A stretch of DNA of 64,000 nt from positions 10,361,607 through 10,425,606 of the forward strand of contig CM119268.1 in assembly GCA_051294375.1 (NCBI GenBank). The letters run 5' to 3'. The position numbers and the translations under genes are program-made. Origin of the DNA: Paraspadella gotoi (taxonomy: Eukaryota > Animalia > Chaetognatha). Within the stretch, counting starts at the first letter, position 1. Every line of letters starts with the position of its first letter. A model generated the notes under the pieces. The model was not told where the DNA came from. It saw nothing but the letters and a program-made list of their open reading frames with translations, and ran no database searches. Positions 38,901 through 41,735 of this stretch are shown here, in pieces.

Positions 38901-41735
38901 GACTCTTCATGTCTAAACAGGGAATCTCCTATGGGAATTTCTTTTACGCTTTCGCATTGATTTTGAGTTACTTCATTCTCTTTTACAACATCCGGCCATT
39001 TTTTTCTCTTAATGTTGACTTCTTTTTCAAAAGGAGTGGCTAGCGGATTTAGAGTCGGCCTGCGATTAAATAAATGACTAAATCAGTGAAATAGTTTTTA
39101 TTATACAATACTGTTATTTGATGTACTTATCGAAAGACTGATCTAAATTTTCGCAGCTGGAGGGTCTGTGCAGATGTTGATTGTACTGGTTCCATTTCTC
39201 TGCGTGAATACTGAAATGACAACTTGGATCTCCAGAATTGAAACGTTCGAGGAGATTTCTTCGAAAGGAATTCAAGTCTATCTGCTGATTTTTGTAATAG
39301 TCTAAGATCCACTCCGTTTCTTCTGATTCATGTCTTTGTTGCAGACTATTCCAGTATTGTTCCCAAAAGAAGTCGGTTTCTTTAAATTCGGAATTTTTTT
39401 GAAATAAAAAGTTTTGGGGCTTTTCTTGATGGAGCTTTTTTCTAAATTTTTTGTAGGTCTTTTTTTTATTTTCAGAAATACAGAAATAGCTTTTTTCTGT
39501 GTTCGTTGCTATGGGTTCCTTTTGTTTTCGACGTTTTTTTTTACTTGAGCGTTTGTTTTTTGCTTTCATTTTGTCTCTCTGACTCTCCATGATTTGTTCA
39601 TTCATTTTTTTTTCAGTATTAGTTTCCTTGCGAGGTTGGTCTTTCTTCAGTTGTTTCATTTCGACTTCATCCTCCAGTATTATTAACGTGTCTGTAACTT
39701 CTGTATCAACCGAGACGTCTAGACGTTTTTGTCTCCTTTTGTCGTTTTTAGCTTTAAAAGATGCATGTCGCTTTTTCGATTCACTTGGTTGCCGTTCGTT
39801 TTCGTGAGCTGCAAATCATAGATTTTTGTACCATGTACTAGATTAAGATTGTGTAGTTTTTTATCACTACCCGTTGGATACGACTGTTCCTTCCATCAAC
39901 GCCGTAATAGCGCACTGGGCTAACGCCTCATCTCCGATCCTAATGGTCCCGGGTTCTAGACCTGGTCGGAACAATCCTTGCGAAAAAAGTGACGAGCCGG
40001 TTAAACCACCGGTAGCAAGCCTACCGCCTATCCGAAGTTCTGGAAAGCAAGGCAACTGACGGAAAAAATCTCCCAGACCCACTGGGCACACTAAGTGTGG
40101 TGGCTCAATGTTGGGGTCTATCCACAATCACAGAAAGGCATGGCGACCCTCTCTGGTCTCGGTCACTTCAATTGCATCAAATATTACCTAATTTTTTTCA
40201 CCTGACTGTTTAATAAATTTTGAATAGATGTAAAAGCCAGATATAATTGGGGTCATTAACAAAGCCACCATAATTGAGCTGACCATATTTAGTAAGCCTT
40301 GAATATATGTTGAAAATTAAACGGACGCTGATGACTCCCATGCAATCGGTGTAAATCTAGGTGAAAAGTTTTTACTTTTTACATAAGTCAATGTTATTTC
40401 CATGATATAAGATGTTGAGAATTTTTGTTTTGGAGTCGTACAAATGGAAAACACTAACAGATTACTTTACTTTTAATCAATTCAGTTTATTTTTACAGAT
40501 GAAAATATTTACGATTTTTAATTCTAAACTGAACTAGGCAAATACGAGAATAAAAACAATAGAATTTTATAAAACACTTACAATGTTGTTTAATCTCTTG
40601 TTAGAGCACGGACGTGAGCATCTTTGCCTTTTACTGAAATATTTTCGGTAAACCGAAATTTTAATCGCCGTGTATGGCTCGGGGTTTATAGAGCTAATTA
40701 AGTCCTTTTTAAAAACCCATTACTTAGTTTTCGCCACTTTATCAGTTGAGCTATGATTCCAAACATTTTTAGTAAAAGTATTGATCGCTATCTATGGCGA
40801 TATGCTATCAAAGTAACCGGAGAGTTATACTTATATAATTAATTATAAATGTAAAATATTTTTTTGAAATATACGGATAAAATTTAATGGCCAAATAATG
40901 TCAAATACAAATTCAACCTATGATATCGTTTATGAACGAAATTGAAAGTAAAGAATAAATTCATCGATTTTTTATTTGAATATTGGACAGGCAAAAGACC
41001 AAGCCGCGGGCGATGACGAGGCCATGCACGTCGACGAAAACTTTTGCACAGCCTTGGAGTATGGGTTGCCTCCTACCGCCGGATGGGGAATGGGCATCGA
41101 TAGGCTGGCTATGTTCCTCACCGACAACTACAACATCAAGGAAGTCTTGTTTTTCCCGGCCATGAAGCCGAAGGGGGATACGAGCGACGAGGCCGGTTCC
41201 GACGCGGCTCCCAAACAAATGGGTGGGGATACGATTTTCGGCAAAATCATTCGTAAAGAGATTCCCGCCAAGATCGTCTACGAAGACGACGAAGCCCTAG
41301 CCTTTCACGACGTCACTCCGGTGGTTAGTTAATTACATTGAACCATCCTCACAATTTTTATCCGCTTTTCATGTAGTATATCAGATTCAATCGTTATATT
41401 TTTTTTACAGTATAAAATAGCTCCTAACAATCATACCAGCAAATTTCCATTGGTAAAGCATTATCTTGGTATCTACCATTTCATCCTTACAGGCCCCAAC
41501 GCACGTACTGGTGATCCCGAAAAAAACCATCTCCTCTCATTCGAACGCGAGCGACAACGACGCCAAGCTCATGGGTCATCTCATGAACGTCTCTAGGAAA
41601 GTGGCTCAGCAACTGGGACTCGCTTCCGGAGGCTACCGGTTGGTCGTCAACGATGGCGCCGACGGCGGTCAGAGTGTCTTCCACCTTCATATGCACATCC
41701 TCGGCGGACGTGCAATGGCCTGGCCTCCAGGATAA
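32912..41735 (+). CDS. KARS1: Lysyl-tRNA synthetase fused in frame to a C-terminal HINT1 (HIT) domain
   Basis: [67 protein letters not shown], then with no stop [16 protein letters not shown]...[17 protein letters not shown]. Confidence 0.93.
37566..37833 (+). mobile_element. tRNA-derived SINE-like repeat, copy 2 (B-box region partly deleted)
   Basis: Colinear similarity to 8508-8791. Confidence 0.75.
38036..40286 (-). CDS. Orphan ~600-aa protein nested antisense in the 5.6-kb KARS intron
   Basis: Three phase-compatible GT-AG exons (40286-40202, 39808-39127, ~39077-38036); hydrophobic N-terminus, Lys-rich block, LNPLATPF motif, duplicated ~40-aa acidic repeat. Confidence 0.6.
39890..40165 (+). 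mobile_element. Second tRNA-like SINE family, single copy here
   Basis: A-box-like TAGCGCACTGGG and B-box-like GGGTTCTAGACC in a GC-rich island within an AT-rich intron. Confidence 0.5.
41219..41735 (+). other. HINT1: HINT1 domain portion of the fusion (intron 41324-41492)
   Basis: [46 protein letters not shown]...[31 protein letters not shown]; HxHxH triad intact. Confidence 0.95.

Follow-up and report, generated by a model that had tools for sequence, protein, structure and literature searches.

A lysyl-tRNA synthetase fused to HINT1 in the chaetognath Paraspadella gotoi

Structure of the fused gene

The window, by which we mean the whole 64,000-nucleotide stretch of the Paraspadella gotoi genome analysed here (GenBank assembly GCA_051294375.1, contig CM119268.1, positions 10,361,607 to 10,425,606 of the forward strand; coordinates below count from its first letter), carries on its + strand a 12-exon gene (32912-41735) that joins lysyl-tRNA synthetase (LysRS) to HINT1. 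The spliced frame of 698 codons is free of internal stops and encodes 697 residues plus a terminal stop, in the order class II LysRS, a 17-residue linker, and HINT1 without its first 13 residues. The GC content at third codon positions is 0.65 in the LysRS part, 0.69 in the linker and 0.66 in the HINT part. All 11 introns are visible as joints in the contigs of run X1.

The frame that starts at 40991 passes from the end of LysRS through the linker and into HINT without a stop, and the junction lies within one exon. A single X1 contig, the only one on 40900-42200, matches 40987-41322 and 41492-42200 with no differences, intron 11 having been removed; X1 may share its source with the window, and its status as RNA is a guess, though introns are absent. 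A contig from X4 (a marine metatranscriptome from an independent study) spans 41147-41314 with one difference. In an X6 contig from another organism, LysRS (32 nucleotides) is joined to HINT (104 nucleotides) with 135 nucleotides between them, compared with 120 in the window; this amounts to five extra codons, so the joint is still in frame. Among the matches listed for X2 and X3 (small shares) there is no junction-spanning piece, and X5 yields no contig on this stretch, which does not prove absence. The transcript evidence consists of assembled contigs, not raw reads, and because X1 contigs run on into neighbouring genes, their continuity alone is no proof of a single transcript. A stop-free joint of LysRS and HINT in one exon had been proposed in an earlier note on this DNA, and is borne out by the frame, by the X1, X4 and X6 contigs and by 29 of the 31 listed relatives described below. 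The stop or indel in the linker that the note had named as a sign against the joint was not found: the frame is intact and the X1 contig has no differences there. The LysRS-HINT1 fusion is almost certainly real and fixed, and neither chance nor an assembly error.

Two details of the earlier description need revision. The junction is indeed in exon 11, but HINT1 is not confined to that exon, as a 169-nucleotide GT-AG intron of phase 0 (intron 11, 41324-41492, a joint in X1) splits the HINT domain; 40991-41735 is consequently not one open frame. The frame from 40991 stays open until 41330, and exon 12 lies in another genomic frame. Pfam places tRNA-synt_2 on 40991-41323 (E = 2.8e-17) and HIT on 41493-41732 (E = 3.5e-21). 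The HINT1 domain, described as full, keeps the HxHxH triad and the terminal WPPG and stop but starts only at the equivalent of HINT1 Gly14.

Exon 1 (32912-32982) begins with the start ATG at 32912, immediately preceded by an in-frame TAA. Exons 2-4 (33134-33278, 33360-33648, 33711-33892), 5-7 (33957-34065, 34142-34283, 34350-34444) and 8-10 (34778-35042, 35107-35182, 35259-35402) are all defined by X1 splice joints and an open spliced frame; together exons 2-10 (33134-35402, residues 24-506) encode the Lys-rich N-extension, the OB fold that binds the anticodon and the greater part of the catalytic domain. Intron 2 (33279-33359) has GC-AG borders. The LysRS part of exon 11 (40991-41170, residues 507-566) completes the catalytic domain with motif 3 and ends in FFPAMKP. 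It is followed by the 17 linker codons (41171-41221), rich in acidic residues, Gly, Ala and Ser and with a Met at 41219, and by the start of HINT1 (GGDTIFGK..., 41222-41323, residues 584-617). Exon 12 (41493-41735, residues 618-697) encodes the remainder of HINT1, with HLHMH at 41682-41696 and WPPG followed by a TAA stop; His683 of the fusion corresponds to His112 of HINT1. An AATAAA motif at 41818-41823 may be the polyadenylation signal of the fused transcript.

Intron 10 (35403-40990) is 5588 nucleotides long, and its X1 joint has only 25 nucleotides on the short side; the full-length relatives run continuously across its position. The intron contains repeats and a nested antisense open reading frame (ORF) of two exons (38039-39058 and 39126-39815, - strand), stop-free over about 570 codons. 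This ORF is rich in Lys, Glu and Asn, is spliced in an X1 contig and has no Pfam match; it may be ORF1 of a retroelement or a gene specific to the lineage.

Relatives, origin and gene neighbourhood

A search of longer proteins with the junction exon identifies five clusters (90% level) that cover the whole query with 83-86% identity and carry tRNA-synt_2 and HIT; the remaining 115 of the best 120 of 7938 matches hit the LysRS part only. The five clusters, with PF01336/PF00152 plus PF01230, have 74 members, and 29 of the 31 listed span the junction. The other two are a fragment that stops at the junction and a 49-residue member that is seemingly unrelated. The sources of the listed members are JGI, Logan, ENA and merc; NCBI and UniRef contribute none, and where a member has a name it is either 'lysyl-tRNA synthetase class 2' or 'hypothetical protein'. 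Contigs of 2.3-2.9 kb, close to the length of a single fused mRNA, carry many of them. P0122 departs from the HINT frame exactly where intron 11 starts in the window, an indication that it derives from genomic sequence containing this intron. Over 21 full-length relatives the identity to the window protein is 82% in the anticodon-binding domain, 88% in the catalytic domain, 30% in the linker and 85% in HINT.

Searching from the HINT side among proteins longer than 268 residues gave 18 matches out of 620 candidates: three fusions, 11 HINT proteins lacking a synthetase and four weak matches to LysRS tails. Four long proteins (P0418, P0419, P0424 and P0427) join HINT to HAD, WD40, AMP-binding or kinase domains; they are single records and may be gene-model errors, and the HAD-HIT cluster has three members. 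None of 80 LysRS loci scanned on metagenome contigs (of 510) is fused or has a HINT match nearby, and an ESM Atlas search returned ordinary LysRS clusters only. The best 150 of 36709 LysRS matches among 50% representatives include no HIT domain; at this level a LysRS cluster has probably absorbed the fusions.

In a FastTree phylogeny of 103 LysRS rows the seven fusion rows (the window protein plus six full-length relatives) make up a single clade with support of 100 and a stem of 0.32. The clade is nested in no named group and stands apart from the named crustacean, insect, mollusc, annelid, nemertean, echinoderm, vertebrate and coral rows, the base of the tree being unresolved; the matches included no named chaetognath protein. 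It includes no unfused row, although rows were picked by likeness to the 60 C-terminal residues. P0003, P0123 and P0132 were omitted from this tree because their assemblies look chimeric or gapped in the part before the junction. An IQ-TREE phylogeny of 72 HINT rows (116 columns) likewise groups the six fused domains in one clade (100/98), which sits inside the eukaryotic HINT1 group (98/93) and apart from the bacterial rows, in a set with no named HINT2 row. The mostly bacterial best matches of exon 12 had raised a bacterial origin of the HINT half, which was rejected on this tree. The simplest reading of the two trees is a single fusion event in an animal lineage, involving the animal's own HINT1. 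Two neighbouring genes on the same strand would once have lost what separated them: the stop codon, the DNA between the genes and 13 codons at the start of HINT1.

The fused gene has close neighbours on its own strand, 205 nucleotides upstream and 318 downstream. Just upstream (28958-32706, + strand) lie TIM17 and a second gene that matches WDCP weakly, both covered by a 9386-nucleotide X1 contig from which introns are gone while intergenic DNA is kept, as in an operon or with overlapping untranslated regions. The 318-nucleotide gap past the HINT stop leads to a short rhodopsin-family seven-transmembrane (7TM) gene (42054 to about 43053, + strand), opsin-like by eye, and one X1 contig extends from LysRS exon 11 through it. 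Its motif differs from those of the three opsins reported in PMC10952353; an ESM Atlas search with this gene returned generic 7TM clusters only. Further downstream (about 52400-55900, + strand) an ORF resembling reverse transcriptase, with a weak match to RVT_1, is followed by one that looks recombinase-like by eye, which suggests a retroelement of the DIRS type.

The LysRS half, the HINT1 half and the linker

The LysRS half belongs to class IIb: PF01336 and PF00152 are found on relatives P0002 and P0005, and the window protein is 83% identical to P0002. All 36 columns that are invariant among LysRS in a 92-sequence alignment (active site, motifs 1-3) are retained in the window protein; the half would charge tRNA-Lys. 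Human KARS1 (PDB: 6chd) matches residues 9-571 of P0002 with E = 5.5e-271 and shares with the fusion the N-extension, the OB fold, the catalytic domain and a Ser/Thr-Pro at the Ser207 site; it differs in that the short C-terminal tail of the fusion leads on into a HINT1 domain. At the equivalent of Ser207-Pro, a site of mitogen-activated protein kinase (MAPK), five of five relatives have Ser and the window Thr, whereas Ala is found in 17 of 44 other LysRS. Eleven positions are fixed differently in the fusion clade from the LysRS of other animals (e.g. His211 to Trp). The p38/AIMP2-binding residues were considered as a clue and dropped, being variable across animals and uninformative.

Animals have a single LysRS lineage (PMC4558845). 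No alternative mitochondrial-targeting exon was found in intron 1 (32983-33133), and a targeting-like N-terminus is absent from all the near-full relatives, unlike several other animals among the matches listed. Chaetognath mitogenomes have lost tRNA genes (PMC5470650); a link between this loss and the missing targeting exon is speculative.

The HINT half (numbered via a 126-residue fish HINT1) is closer to HINT1 (E = 1e-50) than to HINT2 (E = 1e-38) or bacterial HinT (E = 1e-31). The catalytic residues, reported intact in the earlier note, are so throughout: H51, N99, G105, Q106, H110, H112, H114, W123 and the dimer residue V97 are present in all 14 distinct fused domains, as are F19, I22, D43 and V108 and the C-terminal loop with Trp123 and the WPPG end. 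In a model of the HINT part of P0121, 106 residues have a predicted local distance difference test (pLDDT) score above 90 and the root mean square deviation (rmsd) to HINT1 is 0.7 Å. An AlphaFold2 model of the full-length fusion, from a shallow alignment of 18 rows, had a mean pLDDT of 36.8 and was not used. The fused domain thus resembles stand-alone HINT1 in identity (67-69%), fold, triad, His51, Asn99, Trp123 and terminal WPPG. It differs in the absence of residues 1-13, in C38A, Q62S and I63H, fixed in 14/14 (His occurs at 63 in two of 118 other HINTs), in the replacement of Q47 by V, A or I, and in a variable Tyr109. Being fused and lacking residues 1-13, it is classed as a HINT1 domain and not as a stand-alone 126-residue HINT1 protein. 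Homodimerization and phosphoramidase/acyl-AMP hydrolase activity are predicted; V97 and W123 are retained.

The linker is another matter. There are 20 distinct linkers of 17-23 residues, and their sequence is not conserved (30% identity); in the P0121 model the linker residues 26-37 have pLDDT below 50. The tails of 114 unfused LysRS have a median length of 17 residues (range 8-25), so that the linker is in effect an ordinary LysRS tail. The earlier note had suggested that Met 41219 could yield free HINT. This finds no support: the Met is private to the window species, being absent from all 19 other linker variants, which makes free HINT unlikely, and the linker holds no pyrimidine-rich YAG acceptor, its AGs being purine-rich GAG or AAG (by a scan that scores four of the 11 true acceptors of the gene below its threshold). 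Fused relatives reach at least 83% identity over the HINT domain; no free HINT protein of 44-140 residues more than 71% identical to exon 12 is present in the best 120 of 7753 matches. A more distant HINT1 paralogue or a rare free-HINT isoform is possible.

What the fusion may do

In mammals HINT1 has been isolated with KARS and is adenylylated, in a lysine-dependent manner, by lysyl-AMP that KARS makes, as set out in PMC5382946; the biochemical link between mammalian LysRS and HINT1 cited in the earlier note is therefore in print. The same text describes HINT1 as hydrolysing aminoacyl adenylates and AMP-amidates, AMP-N-lysine included, as having to dimerize, and as taking Ala-, Asp-, Met- and His-AMP as well, and states that the endogenous substrate is unknown (PMC5382946). 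Our favoured reading, held with about as much doubt as confidence, is that the HINT domain is a tethered scavenger that would hydrolyse lysyl-adenylate, or AMP-amidate/AMP-amine by-products, leaked from LysRS. Both halves would dimerize, and the simplest arrangement would be one LysRS dimer bearing one HINT dimer on two flexible tethers. The higher-order assemblies raised in the earlier note are a possibility. The tether would raise the local concentration of hydrolase around released adenylate, while enzyme-bound Lys-AMP would stay protected. The catalytic residues of both halves are kept, and HINT is conserved about as well as the catalytic domain while the linker varies, all of which supports a scavenger. 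That the two halves are functionally coupled in some way is likely: few genes that happened to lie next to LysRS would encode a published partner of it, a point of argument, not of computation. The fusion is probably the main LysRS and the main HINT1 of its lineage.

Several points weigh against the scavenger. An unconserved linker would fit independent domains equally well, and since HINT1 accepts many aminoacyl-AMPs, its chemistry offers no special reason for it to ride on LysRS. The neighbouring genes on the same strand are so close that an accidental fusion would be easy. I63N in human HINT1 is reported as likely pathogenic (PMC9943687); taken with the fixed Q62S and I63H, this means that activity may be lowered or altered. 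A second, free copy of KARS or HINT1 is possible.

Some of these points are shared by the main rival, in which two adjacent housekeeping genes, perhaps members of one operon, fused neutrally or for mere economy; the halves would work independently, the fusion having been kept as the only copy. We consider it unlikely, but it is the strongest of the alternatives. Genes on this strand are tightly packed and X1 contigs traverse several of them; in one chaetognath species 18% of genes lie in operons (PMC12460157); the linker is as long as a normal LysRS tail and varies freely; and a few other long proteins combine HINT with partners of unrelated kinds (some perhaps gene-model errors). Yet the partner acquired here is one of a small number of proteins whose biochemical connection to LysRS has been published (PMC5382946), and linker length is confined to 17-23 residues. 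The changes fixed in the clade on both halves also speak against neutrality, although drift along a long branch would yield them too. As to an operon, an acceptor scan between the upstream gene and LysRS found no site, with a method that also misses four of 11 true acceptors.

Improbable, in our judgement, is a signalling role in which diadenosine tetraphosphate (Ap4A) made by LysRS binds the attached HINTs, chains fusion dimers together and frees a transcription factor such as MITF, a module that the earlier note had raised. Ap4A polymerizes human HINT1, with K21 and Y109 tied to MITF binding and polymer formation, according to PMC6789022, and a Ser207 switch of LysRS is described in PMC4932449. 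The fusion keeps the human MAPK site Ser207-Pro and, of the seven residues of the polymer surface (D16, I18, K21, H59, Q62, S107, Y109), four, namely D16, I18, K21 and S/T107. Against this, H59 is P or T and Q62 is S in all 14 fused domains, and position 109 is F in 10, S in two and Y in only two; P59, though, is also found in fish and rotifer HINT1, so that the change at H59 means little. HINT1, moreover, barely hydrolyses Ap4A (< 5% in 24 h; PMC6789022). The idea is weakened by these replacements, the MAPK site and the four retained residues notwithstanding.

The two remaining readings are very improbable. An aminoacyl-adenylate hydrolase covalently attached to a synthetase might suggest a built-in pre-transfer editing domain that clears non-cognate adenylates from LysRS, as the earlier note had proposed, but lysyl-AMP itself is among the several aminoacyl adenylates with which HINT1 reacts (PMC5382946); an enzyme that takes the cognate adenylate offers no side-chain sieve, and a flexible, unconserved tether also gives no channel. 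A dual output or polyprotein, with free HINT1 released by internal initiation, trans-splicing or linker cleavage, could draw on Met 41219 in the window, on the acidic and then small residues of most linkers and on the fact that rare isoforms would escape contig-level evidence, but it is opposed by the lack of Met in the other linker variants, the purine-rich linker AGs, the single X1 contig on 40900-42200 with no loose end in the linker among the matches listed, the failure to find a close free HINT among the best matches to exon 12, and the absence, by eye, of an invariant cleavage motif.

The fusion has partial counterparts. The mammalian LysRS-Ap4A-HINT1-MITF pathway and HINT1 adenylylation involve the same two proteins (PMC6789022 and PMC5382946), which there are separate and here are one chain, with three of the seven polymer-surface residues different. 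MccH, a HIT hydrolase of microcin C clusters, is a phosphoramidase that shields a synthetase from an adenylate-like compound; unlike the fused HINT it is bacterial and stand-alone, forms a separate clade, has an altered triad and acts on an antibiotic (PMC7157772). Several LysRS carry an added C-terminal domain in the same position (the 777-residue LysRS of PDB 4up7; P0271, P0277 and P0354), but none of the best 150 of the 50% representatives searched above has a HIT domain. The tails of P0271, P0277 and P0354 we take to be tRNA-binding EMAP-like domains. No description of a LysRS-HINT1 fusion was found in the literature searched, where subscription journals are thinly covered, or in named database entries, in agreement with the earlier note, which knew of no described case. 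What seems new is the LysRS-HINT1 architecture; both domains, and the habit of synthetases of gaining appended domains, are already known.

HINT1 and KARS are both genes of inherited peripheral neuropathy. The link between LysRS and HINT1 has hitherto rested on in vitro adenylylation and on signalling in mast cells, and independent evolutionary support for it now comes from a fusion that is fixed in many sequences of marine animals. As a single protein found in nature, the fusion also allows coupling in cis to be compared with split and His-mutant versions as controls. Its domain architecture is an undescribed addition to a well-studied enzyme family and may serve as a molecular marker of the lineage. 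We put forward tentatively, as less likely than the scavenging role itself, that the lineage (perhaps the phylum Chaetognatha) has its sole LysRS and sole HINT1 in one obligate enzyme, whose HINT is adenylylated in cis by lysyl-AMP. If so, this would be the first genetic evidence to tie the physiological job of HINT1 to LysRS chemistry, and the appendage, actively hydrolysing an intermediate of the very synthetase that bears it, would be of a new type.

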